DNA of 64,000 nucleotides from Nannocystis pusilla (GTDB taxonomy: Bacteria > Myxococcota_A > Polyangia > Nannocystales > Nannocystaceae). Of the stretch, positions 3,579 through 57,971 are shown piece by piece (position 1 is the first letter of the stretch; the number at the start of each line of letters is the position of its first letter). The notes under the pieces are model-generated. The model was given only the letters and a program-made list of their open reading frames with translations, had not been told where the DNA came from and ran no database searches. The stretch lies in the NCBI RefSeq assembly GCF_049337375.1, contig NZ_JBMPIV010000001.1, one strand, 5' to 3'. The position numbers and the translations under genes were made by a program.

Positions 3579-4928
3579 ATGTCTTCTCTTCCCCAACTCG
3601 ACGCGATCGCGACCCTGCTGAACCAGGGCGCCGCGGATTCGGCGGTCCGCTTGTTGCGAAGCTGTTGGGAGCCCGATCTCCCGCCCGACGACCTCGTGCG
3701 GATGTACTGCATGTGGGTCCGCGGGTTGTGTGAGACCGGTGAACTCGACCACGCGCTGACGCTGGCCCGCAGGGCCGCGAACGAATTCCCGCGCGAACCC
3801 GACGTCCTGATCGCGCTCGGCAACGTGCAGGATCTGGTCGGCGACCTCGAGAAGGCCCGCGAGGCGTTCGAATCGGCGATCGATCACGACCCGGGCGGCG
3901 GCCTGCAGCACTACAACCTCGGCGCGGTGCTCGAGCGACTCGGGCGCGAGATGGACGCGGAGGTCTGTTATCGCCGAGCCAACGAGTGCGACCCGCATGG
4001 CGGGATGTACGAGGCGATCGCGGCGCTCGGGGCGTTGCTGCGGCGCCAGGGTCGGCTCGAAGAGGCCGAACAGATCTACGACCTCTACCTCAGCGACGAC
4101 TCGATCAACGTCGAGATCCTGGTCGAGCACGGCATCTGTCTGTCCGACCTCGACCGCCTCGACGAGGCGATCGATCGCTTCGACTTCGCGCTGAGCCTCG
4201 ACCCCGAGAACGCGGGGGCGCAGTACAACAAGGCGATCACGCTCTATCGCCTCGGTCGCTACGAGCAAGCCCTGGGCGCGCTCGAGCGGGCCCGCCAGCT
4301 CGACAAGGGCAACGCGCTCACGCTCGCGGTGCTCGGCGGCTGGCGCCTGTCGGCCGCCGATTGCGACCTCGACGAGGCGCTCGGCCTGCTCTACGGCGCG
4401 CTCGATCTGCTCGAGCGGCGCTACGCCCAGGACCCCGGGCAGCTCGGCTACTGCAGCCTGGTCGCGGAGGAGATCTTCGAAGCGCTGTGGCAGAACGGCC
4501 GCCAGGGCGAGGCCCGCGAGGTCGCGCGGCTGGCCGGCCAGCGCGAGTGGATCACGCCGCACATCCTCGACTGTCTCAACGAGGCCGACCACGGGCGCTC
4601 GCCGCAGGTCAGCATGTACACGGTGGTCGCTCGCGCGGAGGCCGGCGAGCGGCCCGAGCACTGGCCCGAGAACACCGACGGCTACACCACCGGTTTGACC
4701 GTGCTGGCCACCGACGAGAACGAGGCGCGCGAGTTCTGCCTGCAGTATCTGCGGTCGATCGAGCCGTCGCCCGACATCCGCTTCACCCTCGACGTGGTGC
4801 CGCCGCAGTCACCGAGCGACCCGAGCCCGTCGCTCGAGATGATGGCCGAGCTGCGCGGCGCGATGCAGCCGCGGCCGCGCGGCGTCGCGCGAGTCCACGG
4901 CCAGCGGGCTTATACGTTCCGCACCTGA
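3579..4928 (+). CDS. Tetratricopeptide (TPR) repeat protein
   Basis: Multiple TPR-like A/Y/L repeat units (e.g. AQYNKAITLYRLGRYEQALGALERARQLD) and no enzymatic domain. Confidence 0.7.
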   Translation: MSSLPQLDAIATLLNQGAADSAVRLLRSCWEPDLPPDDLVRMYCMWVRGLCETGELDHALTLARRAANEFPREPDVLIALGNVQDLVGDLEKAREAFESAIDHDPGGGLQHYNLGAVLERLGREMDAEVCYRRANECDPHGGMYEAIAALGALLRRQGRLEEAEQIYDLYLSDDSINVEILVEHGICLSDLDRLDEAIDRFDFALSLDPENAGAQYNKAITLYRLGRYEQALGALERARQLDKGNALTLAVLGGWRLSAADCDLDEALGLLYGALDLLERRYAQDPGQLGYCSLVAEEIFEALWQNGRQGEAREVARLAGQREWITPHILDCLNEADHGRSPQVSMYTVVARAEAGERPEHWPENTDGYTTGLTVLATDENEAREFCLQYLRSIEPSPDIRFTLDVVPPQSPSDPSPSLEMMAELRGAMQPRPRGVARVHGQRAYTFRT

Positions 4929-50995: not shown

Positions 50996-52570
50996 TCAGC
51001 GATTCCGTGGCCCGAATTGCAGGTCGAGGCCGAAAGTGGTGCGCAGGCCCGCGCGGCCGCCGCGGTACACCTCTTCAGCGCCGACGGTGAAGATCGGGCG
51101 GTTGACGGCCACGAGTCCCTCGACGGCCAGCCACAGGCCGAGCGGGCCGGCGACCCGCCAGCGCAGCGCGGGGCCGAGGAAGAAGCTGGCCCACGGGGCC
51201 CATCGCGGGTTCGGGACGGTGACGTCGCGGGCGACGCCGTGGAGCGCACCGACCTCGAGGCCGGCGCACAGGAGGACGGCGAGCGCCGGGCGCGGGTGCA
51301 GGGTCGGACAGAGCCGCACGACCCCGCCGAGGCGGTCGAAGCGGCCGCCGGGGCGCTCGCTGTCGCCTGGGAGGATCCGGCCGGGCGCGCCCACGAGGCC
51401 GGCCTCGAGGCGCAGGCGCGGCAAGGTGACGCCGCCGAACACGCCGACGAGGCCCCCGACGCCGGGGAGGACGCCGACGTCGAGGCCGCCCTCGAGGCGG
51501 AGGTGGCCGAGCACGCGCGGCGGTGCGGCCGGCCGGGGCGTTCGCGCGGCGGAGAACTCGGCTGTCTCTTCGGACATGTCCTCGGGGGCGAGCGGGCGCG
51601 ACGGCCCGGCGGGCGGTCGCGGGGGCGCGGGCGAGGTGAGCCGGCCTGCGGGTGAGGAGGTCGGGTCTGGCCGGAAGGACAGGTCGGGAGCGGCGGGGAT
51701 CGAGGGGGCGCGGGCCGGGTCGGACGCGAGGGGGTCGGGCGGCAGGAGCGGCGGGACCGGCCTCGTGGGCGACTCGGGTGGAGTGGGGGATGTCCGCGAG
51801 GACAGGTCGGTGGGCGAGGCCGGATCGGACGCGGAGGTCGTGGATGGCCGCGGGGCCAGGTCGGTGGGCGGGGCCGTGCCGGGCGGAGAGGAGGTCGTGG
51901 ATGTCCGCGGGGACAGGTCGGTGGACGGGTTGCCGGGCGGGGAGGTCGTGGATGTCCGCGGGGACAGGTCAAAGGGGCCCGGCGACGGGATCTTGGCTGT
52001 CCCGGAGGACAGGTCGGGCGGCAGGGCCGGGGGCGCGGGCGGGGCGACGGCGACCGCGGGCAGACCGCGGGCGACGCCCAGGGGGTCGAGGTGGATGGCG
52101 ATCAGGAGGGCGGCGGCGCGCGCGAGGATCGGGCAGCTCTCGGCGCGGACGGTGCGGCGGTAGGCGCTGCCCCGCCCACGCAGCACGAGCCGCAGCTCCC
52201 ACGTCGCGGCGGCGCGCGTGACGAGCCCGCGGGCAACGGCGCGACCTGCCGCGTCGTCGCCGGTCGGCTGACGCAGCAGGCCGGCGACCATGTGCAGGAC
52301 GGCGTCGCCGTCGGGGCACTCGCGCGGAGCCTGCCAGGTCAGGTCGACCGGCGGCGCGGCGACCGACGGCGCGGCGGACGAGAGGCGAGCGAACACCAGC
52401 GCGGCGAGGGCGAGCAAGCGAGAGTCCTGGCCCCGGTGATCGTGTCCGGGCAGGCGGGGGGCGTCAACTGTCGGCTGGCGTGCGACCGCGTGGACCGGCG
52501 TGCGGGCGGGGCAGGGCGACAGGTCGCGCGGGCGCGGCCGGGGCGAGACCGGCCGGACCCTGCGATGCAC
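50996..52570 (-). CDS. Hypothetical secreted protein: N-terminal domain, Pro/Ser/Thr-rich 17-18-aa tandem repeats, and a C-terminal region with beta-barrel-like alternating hydrophobicity
   Basis: Repeats of DLSPRTSTTSPPG(N/T)PST and a C-terminal ...GLRTTFGLDLQF... The start is uncertain. It lies 22 nt upstream of the sigma gene. Confidence 0.45.
   Translation of the reverse strand: MHRRVRPVSPRPRPRDLSPCPARTPVHAVARQPTVDAPRLPGHDHRGQDSRLLALAALVFARLSSAAPSVAAPPVDLTWQAPRECPDGDAVLHMVAGLLRQPTGDDAAGRAVARGLVTRAAATWELRLVLRGRGSAYRRTVRAESCPILARAAALLIAIHLDPLGVARGLPAVAVAPPAPPALPPDLSSGTAKIPSPGPFDLSPRTSTTSPPGNPSTDLSPRTSTTSSPPGTAPPTDLAPRPSTTSASDPASPTDLSSRTSPTPPESPTRPVPPLLPPDPLASDPARAPSIPAAPDLSFRPDPTSSPAGRLTSPAPPRPPAGPSRPLAPEDMSEETAEFSAARTPRPAAPPRVLGHLRLEGGLDVGVLPGVGGLVGVFGGVTLPRLRLEAGLVGAPGRILPGDSERPGGRFDRLGGVVRLCPTLHPRPALAVLLCAGLEVGALHGVARDVTVPNPRWAPWASFFLGPALRWRVAGPLGLWLAVEGLVAVNRPIFTVGAEEVYRGGRAGLRTTFGLDLQFGPRNR
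51570..52015. repeat. Coding DNA tandem repeats (about 51-54-bp units) composed of GGACAGGTC / GGATGTCC subunits related to the 14-bp family
   Basis: For example, gaggtcgtggatgtccgcggggacaggtcggtggacgggttgccgggcggg repeated 4-5 times. Confidence 0.75.
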
Positions 52571-54029: not shown

Positions 54030-55079
54030 TCAGGCGACGGGGATCGGCGGCGGGACGATGCTGTCGGGCTGGCCGCCGGCGATCCGCGGGCGGCTGCTCT
54101 CGACCTGCTGGTGCGGGGTGCCGAGGGCGATCGCGCTGGTGGCGTCGAGGCGGGCGAGCTGAGCCGGCGCGAGCTCGAGGGTGAGCGCGGCGAGGGCGGC
54201 GTCGAGGTGTTGGCGGGTGCGCGGGCCGAGGATGGGGATCCGCGCAGTGGTGGAGCGATCGGCGTGGGCCAGCGACCAGGCGAGGGCGACCTGGATCGGG
54301 GCCACGCCGGCCTCGGCGGCGACTGCGACGACGGCGTCGAGGATGGCGGTCTCGCGCGCGGTCTTCTCGGTGTGGACGAGCATGCCGAGGCCGGTGAGGC
54401 GGCCCTCGTCGCCGGTGCGGTACTTGCCGGTGAGGAAGCCGCCGCCGAGCGGCGACCACAGGGCCGCGCCGAGCCCCAGCGCCTCTGCCATCGGCAGCAG
54501 CTCGCGCTCCCCGGTGCGCTCGACCAGGCTGTGCTCGATCTGCACGCCCGCGAGCGGGGTCCAGCCGCGCAGCTCCGCGATCGCGTCGCCCCGCGCGACC
54601 CGCCAGGCGGGGAAGTTCGACAGGCCTCCGTAGAGGACTTTGCCGGCCCGCGCGAGGTCGTCGAGGCCGCGCACGATCTCGTCGATCGGGGTCAGGCCGT
54701 CGGGGAAGTGGACCCAATACAGCTCGATGCGGTCCGTCTTGAGCCGGCGCAGGCTGGCCTCGAGCGCGGCGATCATGGTCTTGCGGCTGTTGCCGGTGGC
54801 GTGCAGGCCACCTCCGACGCCGAGGGTGTACTTGCTGGCGACGACGAAGCGGTCGCGCTCGGCCGCGAGGAACTCGCCGAGCAGCTGCTCCGACTGGCCG
54901 ACCTGGTAGGTGTCGGCGGTGTCGATGAAGTTGCCGCCCGCCTCGGCGTAGGCGTCGAAGATCCGCCGCGCCTCGGCGGGCTCGCTGCCGTGGCCCCAAC
55001 CAGTGCCGAAGTTGCCGGTGCCGAGCGCGAGCTCGGAGACGCGTAAGCCTGTGCGACGACCAAATGTCCTGTACCGCAT
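54030..55079 (-). CDS. Aldo/keto reductase
   Basis: AKR fold motifs (LALGTGNFG, IDTADTY, ELYWVH). Confidence 0.85.
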   Translation of the reverse strand: MRYRTFGRRTGLRVSELALGTGNFGTGWGHGSEPAEARRIFDAYAEAGGNFIDTADTYQVGQSEQLLGEFLAAERDRFVVASKYTLGVGGGLHATGNSRKTMIAALEASLRRLKTDRIELYWVHFPDGLTPIDEIVRGLDDLARAGKVLYGGLSNFPAWRVARGDAIAELRGWTPLAGVQIEHSLVERTGERELLPMAEALGLGAALWSPLGGGFLTGKYRTGDEGRLTGLGMLVHTEKTARETAILDAVVAVAAEAGVAPIQVALAWSLAHADRSTTARIPILGPRTRQHLDAALAALTLELAPAQLARLDATSAIALGTPHQQVESSRPRIAGGQPDSIVPPPIPVA

Positions 55080-55205
55080 CGTGTGCTCCTGATGTCGGTT
55101 TTAGATTATGGTCGTCATATGGAATCGGCAAGAGGATGGCGTGTGAGTTCGGTTGAGTCGGTGCGGGCGTATTCGCGCGGCGGGTCTTGCGAGGATTCAA
55201 TCAAA

Positions 55206-55222
55206 CGTTCAATGATTGAACG
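55206..55222. promoter_or_regulatory. Perfect 8-1-8 operator palindrome CGTTCAATgATTGAACG overlapping the MFS start codon, in the AKR/MFS divergent region
   Basis: Read directly from the sequence. TTCAAT direct repeats flank it, and an SD-like GAGGA lies 15 nt upstream of ATG 55212. Confidence 0.6.
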
Positions 55223-56588
55223 CATGGAGATGCGCCTTTCCCCATTGGTCGTGGCCAGCCTGGCCGTGTTCGCGGTGTTCCTCGACACGACGGTGCTGTT
55301 CGTGGCGTTCCCGTCGATCGCGGCGACGTTCCCGGCGGTGCCCACGGCCGAGCTGTCGTGGGTGCTGAACGCGTACACGATCGTGTTCGCGGCCGCGCTG
55401 GTGCCGTTCGGGCGGCTCGCCGATCGCTGGGGCCATCGGGCGACGTTCCTGGCCGGGTCGATCGCCTTCACTCTGGCGTCGCTGCTGTGCGCGGCGGCGC
55501 CGACTCCGGGGCTGCTGGTGGCCGCGCGCGTGCTGCAGGCGGCCGGCGGCGCGGCGCTGGTTCCTTCGTCGCTCGCGCTGGTGATGCGGGCGACGCCGCG
55601 CGAGAGGCTGCCGGTGGCGCTGGCGGTGTGGGGCGCGACGGGAGCGGTGGCGGGGGCGGTCGGGCCGACGCTCGGCGCGGCGCTGATCGAGGCGTGCGGC
55701 TGGCGCTGGGTGTTCGCCATCAACCTTCCGGTCGGGCTGGTGACGGTGCTGCTCGGGCGAAGGCGCCTGACCGAGTCGCGCGACCCGGACAGCGTGCTGC
55801 CGGCGCCGCTCGGGGTGGTGCTGCTGGTGCTCGCGGCGGTGCTGATCACTCTGGCGCTGGTGCTCGGGGAGGCGTGGGGCTGGACGTCGCAGCGGACCGC
55901 GGCGACGCTGGTGGCCGGGCTGGCGACCCTGGCGGCGTTCGTGATCCATCAGGCGCGCACGCGGGCGCCGACGATCGATCTGTCGCTGTTCGCGGGGAGC
56001 AACTTCCGCTGGGCCAACGCGGCGACGCTGACGTTCGGCGCGGCGTTCACGGCGATGTTCCTGGCCAGCGTCCTGTTCCTCACCGCCGTGTGGGGCTGGT
56101 CGATCCTCGCGGCGGGCTTCGGCGTCGCGCCCGGGCCGCTGCTGGTGGCGGTGCTGTCGCCGCGTTTCGGGCGGCTGGCGACGCGGATCGGCCAGCGGCC
56201 GCTCTTGATCGCCGGAGGGCTGTCGTTCGCGCTCGGGGGGCTGTGGCGCCTGGGGATGCTGTCGGCCGAGGTCGACTACGCGGTCGACTACCTACCGTCG
56301 ATGCTGCTGACCGGGACAGGGGTGGCGCTGTGCCTGCCGCAGCTGTCGAGCGTGGTCGGCCAGGCGTTGCCGGCGAACCGCCTCGGGGTCGGCGGGGCGG
56401 TCCACCAGGCGCTGCGCCAGTTCGCGGGGACGCTCGGGGTGGCGCTGGCGATCGGGCTGACTGCCGGGGCGAGCGGGCCGGCCGACGCGCTGGCGCGGTT
56501 CGACCGGGTGTGGTGGGTGATGATCGCCGGCGGGGTGGCGACCGCGCTGTGCTCGCTGCCCCTTCGGACAGGTCCGGCCCGGGCGTGA
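55212..56588 (+). CDS. MFS transporter, DHA2 (EmrB/QacA-like, 14-TM) drug:H+ antiporter family
   Basis: Start at ATG 55212 or 55224. It has 14 predicted TM helices and MFS motif A (GRLADRWGHR). Confidence 0.8.
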   Translation: MIERMEMRLSPLVVASLAVFAVFLDTTVLFVAFPSIAATFPAVPTAELSWVLNAYTIVFAAALVPFGRLADRWGHRATFLAGSIAFTLASLLCAAAPTPGLLVAARVLQAAGGAALVPSSLALVMRATPRERLPVALAVWGATGAVAGAVGPTLGAALIEACGWRWVFAINLPVGLVTVLLGRRRLTESRDPDSVLPAPLGVVLLVLAAVLITLALVLGEAWGWTSQRTAATLVAGLATLAAFVIHQARTRAPTIDLSLFAGSNFRWANAATLTFGAAFTAMFLASVLFLTAVWGWSILAAGFGVAPGPLLVAVLSPRFGRLATRIGQRPLLIAGGLSFALGGLWRLGMLSAEVDYAVDYLPSMLLTGTGVALCLPQLSSVVGQALPANRLGVGGAVHQALRQFAGTLGVALAIGLTAGASGPADALARFDRVWWVMIAGGVATALCSLPLRTGPARA

Positions 56589-56601
56589 TACAACGGGCCT
56601 C

Positions 56602-57057
56602 GTGCGGCGCAAGCGACTCGACCGGATGCAGTGCTCGATCGCCCGGGCGCTCGATGTCGTCGGCGACCCGTGGACGCTGCTGCTCGTGCGCGACGCGCTG
56701 CTCGGGGTGACCCGCTTCGAGGTGTTCCAGGCGCGGCTGCAGATCCCGCGGGCCACGTTGACGGCCCGCCTGGCGCACCTGGTCGACGCGGGAATTCTTG
56801 AGCGCAGGTCCTACCAGGATCACCCGCCGCGCGAGGAGTACGTGCCGACGGCGAAGGGCCGCGGGCTGCGGCCGGTGATCGTGACGCTGATGCAGTGGGG
56901 CGACGCGTTCGCGCGCGAGGACCCACCGCCGACGGTGCTCGAGGACGCCGCCACGGGGCTGCCGATCGAGCCGGTGCTGGTCGACCGTGTCAGCGGGGCG
57001 CCGCTCACGGCGCTGCGCGTGCGCGCGGTCGGACCGGGGGTGCCGCGGCGGGGTTGA
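56602..57057 (+). CDS. HxlR family transcriptional regulator (second copy in the window)
   Basis: GTG start. The conserved core reads CSIARALDVVGDPWTLLLVRDALLGVTRF. Confidence 0.8.
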   Translation: MRRKRLDRMQCSIARALDVVGDPWTLLLVRDALLGVTRFEVFQARLQIPRATLTARLAHLVDAGILERRSYQDHPPREEYVPTAKGRGLRPVIVTLMQWGDAFAREDPPPTVLEDAATGLPIEPVLVDRVSGAPLTALRVRAVGPGVPRRG

Positions 57058-57128
57058 CGACATGTTCTTTGGGGCATGCTCTCAAGGGCATGGTCGAATG
57101 GAAATGTCGGAAAAGACATGTTATTTTG
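57057..57128. repeat. 14-bp-period repeat (5 units) at the right edge of the AKR-MFS-HxlR insert
   Basis: gacatgttctttgg / ggcatgctctcaag / ggcatggtcgaatg / gaaatgtcggaaaa / gacatgttattttg. Confidence 0.85.
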
Positions 57129-57182
57129 TGCAGGCTGTCGACGCGCCGCCGAAGCGCGATTCGGGCCGGTGACGCGGGCCGA

Positions 57183-57971
57183 TCAGTGGACGGCGAGCTC
57201 GCGGCCGCGCCAGCGGCGGAGGGCGAGCTCGCCGAGCAGGGCGACGAGGCCGAACAGCAGCAGGCCGAGCAGGGTGGCGGTGAAGATCGCGGCGAACAGG
57301 TAGGCGGTCTGCAGGCGGCCGGAGGTCTGGAGGATCAGGGCGCCGAGGCCGAGCTCGTCGGCGCCGAAGCCGGCGAAGAACTCGCCGACGATGGCGCCGA
57401 TGACCGCGAGGCCGCCGCTGATCTTGGCGCCGGCGACGAAGTAGGGCAGCGAGCCGGGCAGGCGCAGCTTGAGCAGCAGCTGCAGGCGCGAGGCGTCGCT
57501 CATGGCGAACAGTTCGAGCAGCTGCGGGTCGACGCGGACGAGGCCGGTGGTGCCGTTGGTGATGATCGGGAAGACGCTGAGGATCGCGGCGGTGAGGACG
57601 ACGCTCTGCAGGCCGGTGCCGAACCACACGACGATCAGCGGGGCGACGGCGACGATCGGGACGGTCTGCAGGAAGATCGCGTACGGGTAGAGGCTGCGCG
57701 CCGCCGTCTGCGACTGCGAGAACAGGACGGCCACGAGGCCGCCGACGACGAGGCTGGCCCCGAGGCCGCCGAGCGCGCCGACAGCGGTCAGCAGCGCGGC
57801 CTGGGCGAGCTGGCCGACGTTCGCCGCGGCCTCGCGCGCGACCTCGGCCGGGGTCGGCACGAGGTAGGCCGGCAGCGCCAGGACGCTGCAGGCCAGCTGC
57901 CACAGGCCGAGGAGGGCGAGGAAGACGAGGAGCGGCGGGAGCGCGGCTCGAGCGGCCGATGCGAGGGACAT
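57183..57971 (-). CDS. ABC transporter permease (NitT/TauT / SsuC-like)
   Basis: Six TM helices and an EAA-like loop. Its family is consistent with the SBP at 52740-53741. Confidence 0.8.
   Translation of the reverse strand: MSLASAARAALPPLLVFLALLGLWQLACSVLALPAYLVPTPAEVAREAAANVGQLAQAALLTAVGALGGLGASLVVGGLVAVLFSQSQTAARSLYPYAIFLQTVPIVAVAPLIVVWFGTGLQSVVLTAAILSVFPIITNGTTGLVRVDPQLLELFAMSDASRLQLLLKLRLPGSLPYFVAGAKISGGLAVIGAIVGEFFAGFGADELGLGALILQTSGRLQTAYLFAAIFTATLLGLLLFGLVALLGELALRRWRGRELAVH

Follow-up and report, generated by a model that had tools for sequence, protein, structure and literature searches.

A conserved palindrome at an efflux promoter of Nannocystis pusilla as a probable operator of the PA1607/BosR-like HxlR regulator encoded in the same operon

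In the myxobacterium Nannocystis pusilla, a perfect 17-bp palindrome, CGTTCAATGATTGAACG, lies at positions 55206–55222 of a 64,000-nucleotide stretch of contig NZ_JBMPIV010000001.1 (assembly GCF_049337375.1), which as a whole is referred to as the window. It stands at the promoter of a two-gene operon that encodes a DHA2-family efflux transporter of the major facilitator superfamily (MFS) and, downstream of it, a winged-helix regulator of the HxlR/DUF24 family. Comparison with related loci indicates that the palindrome is probably the operator of this self-contained MFS-HxlR cassette, that is, a site overlapping the promoter at which the regulator would repress its own operon. In kind this is an ordinary repressor-operator pair, consisting of a DUF24-type autorepressor and a palindromic operator; what is new is the site in this branch of the family.

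Conservation of the palindrome and of the cassette

An initial sequence-only reading had described a perfect repeat of 8-1-8 structure at the start of the MFS gene, flanked by a divergent aldo/keto reductase (AKR) gene and followed, beyond the MFS gene, by the gene for the HxlR regulator. The repeat was confirmed at the position given above, as was the gene layout, with the HxlR gene starting after a gap of 13 nt from the MFS stop codon. The AKR and MFS genes are divergent and separated by 144 bp, within which the palindrome lies; the local GC content around it is 50–57% compared with 70–80% in the flanks. For matches to CGTTCAATGATTGAACG with at most three mismatches the expected number per window is 0.02, and the sole match is the site itself. 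However, perfect palindromes with 8-nt arms are common in this DNA, the window holding 24 of them against 20 ± 5.5 in Markov shuffles, which is no enrichment. Among these, CGTTCAATGATTGAACG is the only one with a GC content below 50%, and 8 of 300 shuffles produced a palindrome with at most 45% GC. Symmetry by itself was therefore dropped as evidence for an operator, and the case is carried by conservation.

Scanning a single genome of each species returned 121 relatives, of which 80 loci were kept (L001–L080), and the gene pairing at these loci was read by tblastn. An MFS gene followed by an HxlR gene was found at seven Nannocystis loci (the window and six other species) and at 43 loci of Acidimicrobiia/Ilumatobacteraceae. 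The MFS protein of the window shares 86–98% identity with those of the six other Nannocystis species and 58–74% with those of the Acidimicrobiia/Ilumatobacteraceae, whose HxlR proteins are 50–67% identical to that of the window. All 50 MFS-HxlR loci carry at the 5' end of the MFS gene either the 13-bp core of the palindrome, TTCAAT-N-ATTGAA (55208–55220 in the window), or a clade-specific variant of it, so that the core is kept across phyla. The exact core is present in all six other Nannocystis species and at nine Acidimicrobiia loci; if up to two mismatches are allowed, 41 of the 49 related loci have it at the MFS 5' end, against three matches elsewhere in 617 kb, and the remaining loci have recognisable variants such as TTGCAT-N-ATGCAA. 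When scored as the generalised motif TTNNAT-N-ATNNAA, 32 sites fall into the expected 500-nt zone and three outside it (32 in ~40 kb compared with 3 in ~577 kb), corresponding to an enrichment of about 150-fold at the MFS 5' end, and within the 64-kb window the motif occurs at this site alone. The palindrome is retained in the orthologous regions, where the sequence-only reading had named its absence as a possible refutation, and its role as an operator at the MFS promoter is backed by this comparative evidence.

The regulators of Nannocystis are nested in group 1 of the Acidimicrobiia in a neighbour-joining tree, and the Nannocystis cassette as a whole nests among Acidimicrobiia/Ilumatobacteraceae sequences at 61–74% identity. 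Since, in addition, no other Myxococcota locus is among the 80 loci kept of the 121 relatives, these sequence relationships suggest that the whole cassette including the operator was transferred between phyla. No comparable upstream palindrome was found at four alphaproteobacterial orthologues (L040, L043, L044 and L046). A different arrangement is seen in Mycobacterium, Mycolicibacterium and Solirubrobacteraceae (L075, L077 and L080), in which HxlR relatives of 42–47% identity are divergent from MFS genes (41–44% identity) and the region between the two genes contains a different repeat, for example CTGGCTTTGGTTT...AAACCAAAGCCAG in L080.

Covariation of the site with the regulator

The HxlR protein encoded downstream had been put forward as the binder of the palindrome, and the comparison leaves it by far the best candidate. 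Beside the 50 MFS-HxlR loci in two phyla, this is based on a covariation between the half-site and the recognition helix, which in the AlphaFold2 model of the regulator is predicted to span residues 50–62 with residue 51 at its N-terminus. At all 35 loci whose regulators have Ala51 (the helix starting PRATL) the left arm reads TTC(A/G)AT, and at all 12 loci with Asn51 (P/ARNTL) it reads TTG(C/T)AT, including the fully symmetric TTGCAT-N-ATGCAA. The divergence of the operator follows the HxlR tree clade by clade.

Further evidence comes from relatives that lack the MFS partner. In Burkholderia, Paraburkholderia and Caballeronia (L052–L070) HxlR orthologues of 47–49% identity occur without an MFS partner, and the region upstream of them contains two 17-bp boxes, AGTT(T/G)CGTGACG(C/A)AACT, at ~3880–3990 of each locus, which share the frame GTT-N9-AAC with the Nannocystis site. 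In one of these loci (L055) the gene divergent from the HxlR orthologue encodes an HlyD-type efflux adaptor, and there is a -10-like hexamer, TAGGAT, ~10 nt before the ATG. The exact 17-mer of the window also lies 47 nt upstream of the start of a PA1607-like HxlR paralogue of 40% identity (2032–2048 in L090 and 3551–3567 in L155, two near-identical contigs that represent one locus sampled twice). This paralogue has a Cys-rich C-terminal tail, and its gene is divergent from a SnoaL-like (PF12680) gene, with no MFS gene there.

Start codon and promoter geometry

The transporter gene, the first of the operon, occupies 55224–56588 on the plus strand. Its product matches Pfam MFS_1 (PF07690, E 3e-43) and scores 235.4 bits against NCBIfam TIGR00711 (efflux_EmrB; cut-off 230.2), which places it in the DHA2 (EmrB/QacA-type) family, and the solved structures nearest to it are EmrB, EfpA and QacA. 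Contrary to the sequence-only reading, the palindrome does not overlap the start codon but ends 1 nt before the conserved ATG at 55224. This ATG is retained in all seven Nannocystis sequences. The ATG at 55212 is destroyed in three Nannocystis species by the central base of the palindrome, which is either G or C, and the ATG at 55230 is lost in N. exedens. In N. punicea a 3-nt insertion after the MFS ATG keeps the frame, and from codon 4 on the third codon positions vary across the Nannocystis alignment. Because of its conservation and of the in-frame indel in N. punicea, the ATG at 55224 was taken as the MFS start.

Alignment of the seven Nannocystis sequences reveals an invariant CTTGCGA, followed by a 15-nt spacer that is constant in length and variable in sequence, and then by TTCAATNATTGAACGCATG, which is unchanging apart from the central base of the palindrome. 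The first of these elements contains a -35-like hexamer, TTGCGA (55187–55192, plus strand), invariant in all seven sequences. Given the geometry, the putative -10 element would be AATGAT (55211–55216, plus strand), which lies inside the palindrome at a distance of 18 nt from the -35. In the Acidimicrobiia of group 1, TTGACA, TTGCGT or TTGTGT is likewise found 14–15 nt before the core. The A of ATG 55224 is the eighth nucleotide past the -10-like hexamer, and this start codon lacks a Shine-Dalgarno sequence, unlike that of the AKR gene (AGGAG, 55090–55086, minus strand). Both features together point to an MFS mRNA that is probably leaderless, starting at or beside the A of ATG 55224, in which case the operator would span roughly -18 to -2.

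In the window and throughout group 1, 2–4 nt separate the core from the start codon. The start codon of groups 2 and 3 is found 10–31 nt downstream of the site (63 nt in L067), and the right arm there reads ATTGGA, ATTAGA or similar, which together with the next two bases gives T(A/G)GACT, plausibly an actinobacterial -10 element. Since the site would overlap the core promoter in both arrangements, repression is favoured.

The regulator and its possible mode of action

The regulator gene (56602–57057, plus strand) encodes a protein that shares 95% identity with one from Nannocystis pusilla and belongs to the HxlR/DUF24 family, with PF01638 matched over residues 19–106 at 68.6 bits (cut-off 20.8). 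More specifically, it falls into the long, PA1607/BosR-like subfamily, as it continues for ~45 residues past the HxlR domain and is homologous to PA1607 over the full length, positions 1–142 of its profile aligning to residues 2–143 of PA1607 (2F2E) with an E value of 5e-36. The AlphaFold2 model (predicted local distance difference test score, pLDDT, 84) has the winged helix-turn-helix fold; its template modelling (TM) score to 2F2E is 0.75–0.80, and Foldseek matched PA1607, PA1374, HypR, HxlR, YodB, YtcD and QsrR, all with a probability of 1.00. In size, the conserved 8-1-8 repeat, which varies with the protein, would fit a site of 15–17 bp for a dimer of such a protein.

Cys11, the sole cysteine of the regulator, is invariant in 39 homologues and aligns with Cys14 of HypR, and a predicted helix (residues 12–20) begins directly after it. 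In YodB, CatR, QsrR and HypR an N-terminal cysteine is the sensor of quinones, diamide or hypochlorous acid (PMC6798810, PMC3351151), and by analogy a response to electrophiles or oxidants is plausible. HxlR of Bacillus subtilis senses formaldehyde through a methylene bridge that joins Cys11 to Lys13 (PMC7835342). Of the inducers that the sequence-only reading had in mind, formaldehyde is not favoured, since the N-terminus of the regulator reads Q10-C11-S12-I13 and thus has Cys11 but Ile in place of Lys13.

The following mechanism is proposed. A dimer of the regulator would bind the 15–17 bp GTTCAAT-N-ATTGAAC with one recognition helix per half-site and would thereby cover the spacer, the -10 element and the discriminator of the MFS promoter. 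The bound regulator would block RNA polymerase, so that the pump gene and the regulator's own gene are repressed. An electrophile or oxidant would then probably lift repression by alkylating or oxidising the invariant Cys11, as in YodB and QsrR, upon which the pump would export the offending compound.

Alternative explanations

Several points weigh against the palindrome being an autorepressor site of the HxlR protein. The Asn51 proteins make up one clade and one separate branch, and the correlation between residue 51 and the half-site thus appears to reflect only one or two independent evolutionary changes. Several Asn51 loci retain ATTGAA as the right arm, and the covariation is clean for the left arm alone. 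The recognition helix of the paralogue in L090/L155 reads SRNLL, and yet its site has TTCAAT; a simple code, in which Ala at position 51 specifies C and Asn specifies G, was rejected because it fails for this paralogue. The hexamers of the proposed MFS promoter appear weak, matching at 8 of 12 positions; a simple scan of 54900–57300 for sigma-70 promoters and intrinsic terminators made no calls, and the promoter is proposed on the basis of conservation, with the transcription start placed accordingly as a prediction. Nor does belonging to the family settle whether the regulator represses or activates, given that HxlR and HypR are activators. Finally, the identical 17-mer is a promoter box of MarR_EPS (TIGR04176) genes. 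A metagenome scan with the exact CGTTCAATNATTGAACG returned at least 120 contigs (L081–L200 among the matches listed), and in at least 32 of the 120 matches listed the 5' end of a MarR_EPS gene lies no more than 100 nt from the 17-mer, which is therefore not unique to HxlR.

This last finding would be accounted for if a MarR_EPS-type regulator encoded elsewhere bound the palindrome in trans, so that the efflux operon belonged to an exopolysaccharide-linked regulon and HxlR was not the binder. At least 38 of the 120 matches listed (for example L083 1631–1647, L170 3003–3019 and L159 5706–5722) have a MarR_EPS gene (137–152 bits, cut-off 88), on contigs whose GC content ranges from 23% to 66%. 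The box is placed there between -35-like and -10-like hexamers, a second, degenerate copy is frequently found nearby, and RfaH-like and PseB genes are among the neighbours. To judge from these sequences, it has the appearance of an autoregulatory box with very wide conservation, and a literature search found no paper describing it. Binding in trans is nonetheless highly improbable for the cassette. No MarR_EPS gene was detected with a home-made hidden Markov model in the 64-kb window or at the 80 HxlR loci, and the box at the MFS-HxlR loci changes with the HxlR clade (to TTGCAT-N-ATGCAA, and to ATTGGA or ATTAGA as the right arm), and HxlR was for these reasons kept as the binder. Moreover, the sampled MarR_EPS loci, which were selected by exact match, show no link of the box to MFS or HxlR genes. 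Among the matches listed, no MFS orthologue stands beside the 17-mer, although MFS-HxlR cassettes were expected, and an HxlR paralogue is present on two near-identical contigs. There is a small chance that GTTCAAT-N-ATTGAAC (15–17 bp) is read by both the PA1607/BosR-like HxlR and the MarR_EPS families with real cross-talk, which would wire the efflux cassette into an exopolysaccharide/biofilm regulon. If this were true, a horizontally acquired efflux cassette would join that regulon in organisms having both regulator families, and the dual reading would be of note as BosR/PA1607 has a biofilm phenotype without a known target.

The remaining alternatives concern what is regulated from the site and in which direction. 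An activating role of HxlR at the palindrome, in which the modified regulator would turn on the pump after the example of B. subtilis HxlR and HypR (PMC3351151, PMC7835342), is improbable, even if a promoter could find some space downstream of the site where the start codon is farther away, as in groups 2 and 3. In the window and throughout group 1 the start codon is so close to the core that a promoter has to lie on the site or ahead of it, and the conserved -35 precedes the core by 15 nt; the activator site of HypR, by contrast, is at -53 to -95. Additional repression of the divergent AKR gene (54030–55079, minus strand; PF00248, E 2.5e-64) from this single palindrome, as in the AKR and efflux pair suggested by the sequence-only reading, is unlikely. 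The AKR gene adjoins the MFS gene divergently in all seven Nannocystis loci, and in B. subtilis the AKR gene ytbE, the MFS gene ytbD and the HxlR-type gene ytcD presumably lie close together as well. However, the AKR gene is outside the conserved module and is found beside the MFS promoter at none of the 43 Acidimicrobiia loci. It has, in addition to its Shine-Dalgarno sequence, a conserved promoter-like element of its own on the minus strand (55103–55131), seen in the Nannocystis alignment and consisting of a putative -35, TTGCCG (55131–55126), a 17-nt spacer and a putative -10, TAATCT (55108–55103). The centre of the palindrome is ~85 nt upstream of this -35, and no second site was found in the intergenic region or in the window. 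With a separate putative AKR promoter and no AKR gene in the Acidimicrobiia cassettes, co-regulation through the palindrome is unsupported. Extremely improbable, lastly, is a symmetry without regulatory meaning, conserved merely as a core promoter or as an RNA hairpin at the mRNA 5' end. The -10 element and the transcription start are probably within or beside the palindrome, and the right arm of the group 2 and group 3 sites resembles a -10 hexamer. Against a mere core promoter, conservation is strongest in the left arm (TTCAAT; in the Asn51 clade TTGCAT), although this arm falls into the normally unconstrained spacer, and symmetry is restored in the TTGCAT-N-ATGCAA sites. A hairpin is impossible with a 1-nt loop, its pairing would be disrupted in the mixed sites (TTGCAT...ATTGAA, TTCAAT...ATTAGA), and if the mRNA is leaderless the site would be untranscribed. 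Folding of 55196–55235 gave a sole stable fold that uses the strain-specific upstream TTCAATCA, and this hairpin was rejected; an Rfam scan of the region returned no match, with one meaningless sub-threshold hit only.

Neighbouring features

The segment used in that fold, TTCAATCA (55196–55203, plus strand), resembles a half-site and corresponds to the TTCAAT direct repeats that had been noted in front of the palindrome. One extra copy of TTCAAT does exist, at 55196–55201, but in the alignment it is missing from the six other Nannocystis species; TTCAATCA is a feature of this strain, with no functional evidence attached to it.

Between the AKR and MFS genes, an AT-rich block at 55099–55132 is kept across Nannocystis and fits a minus-strand AKR promoter, whose spacer CCATATGACGACCA is also conserved. 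The start of the AKR gene is flanked by an 8-nt inverted repeat, GACGACCA/TGGTCGTC (55055–55062 and 55109–55116). A further block, GTGAGTTCGGTTGAGTCGG, at 55143–55161 between the two promoters is largely conserved in the seven Nannocystis sequences and could be the site of another factor.

Directly 3' of the HxlR stop codon, at 57058–57109 on the plus strand, an imperfect hairpin with 25-nt arms (folding z-score -2.2) precedes a T-rich stretch; the terminator scan left this hairpin uncalled. It lies in an AT-rich convergent intergenic region (57058–57140) that contains three repeats of the type (G/A)CATG(T/C)T, GACATGTT being present twice, and a TTATTTT run, and this region may be the terminator of the operon, perhaps a bidirectional one. 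Elsewhere in the window, the list of open reading frames contains a long frame on the minus strand (50996–52570) with a repetitive segment rich in Pro, Thr and Ser and with repeats of the DLSPRTSTTS type.

Comparison with known systems

For the long PA1607/BosR-like branch of HxlR/DUF24 regulators, the literature searched yielded no description of an operator, a regulon or a signal, and searches for the motif, for PA1607, for HxlR with efflux and for ytcD/ytbD likewise found no described operator. DitR, which regulates mfsBC, was set aside as irrelevant, being a TetR-type regulator. The GTT-N9-AAC frame is a first candidate DNA motif for this branch, and efflux systems are its first candidate targets. 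Promoter, operator, pump and regulator are conserved as a unit between the Acidimicrobiia and the myxobacterium Nannocystis, which makes the cassette a clean example of a regulatory unit that would have crossed phyla with its cis-element intact, and a compact part for testing what PA1607/BosR-like regulators sense.

The nearest solved relatives of the regulator are PA1607/BosR (2F2E) and PA1374 (4GCV) of Pseudomonas aeruginosa, with 37–38% identity over the full length, including the C-terminal extension and the N-terminal cysteine. BosR has a biofilm phenotype, and its DNA site, regulon and signal have not been described (PMC9611778). MarR_EPS regulators have the identical 17-mer CGTTCAATNATTGAACG in the promoters of their own genes and are also winged-helix dimers, but they belong to a different family with an unrelated recognition helix, reside at exopolysaccharide loci and are absent from the vicinity of the MFS-HxlR cassettes.

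YodB of B. subtilis and QsrR of Staphylococcus aureus share with the regulator of the window the Pfam family, the fold and an N-terminal sensing cysteine. The QsrR site reads GTATA-N5-TATAC. Like the operators of YodB and QsrR, which are promoter-overlapping palindromes released upon modification of the cysteine by quinones or diamide (PMC6798810), the palindrome of the window would, by its geometry, overlap the putative promoter. It differs from them in that the operator sequence is unrelated and that the regulator is only 20–27% identical, has ~45 additional C-terminal residues and contains a single cysteine. The target also differs, as it is an efflux pump of the same operon rather than the quinone or nitro-reductases and dioxygenases controlled by YodB and QsrR.

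HypR (YybR) of B. subtilis binds a 16-bp inverted repeat of 7-2-7 structure, GTATCAAAATTGATAC, and also has this box close to the promoter of its own gene, which suggests that it represses itself, while hypO is activated from a site at -53 to -95; sensing is by Cys14, and an intersubunit disulphide is formed by two cysteines (PMC3351151). The repeat of the window is similar in size and Cys11 corresponds to Cys14, whereas the regulator has one cysteine and its site is on the putative core promoter. B. subtilis HxlR, the formaldehyde-activated activator of hxlAB, has the fold and Cys11 in common with the regulator of the window; the differences are Lys13, which is Ile here, and the targets, which are those of the ribulose monophosphate pathway in B. 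subtilis and a DHA2 MFS transporter encoded by the adjacent gene in Nannocystis, where the position of the site argues for repression.

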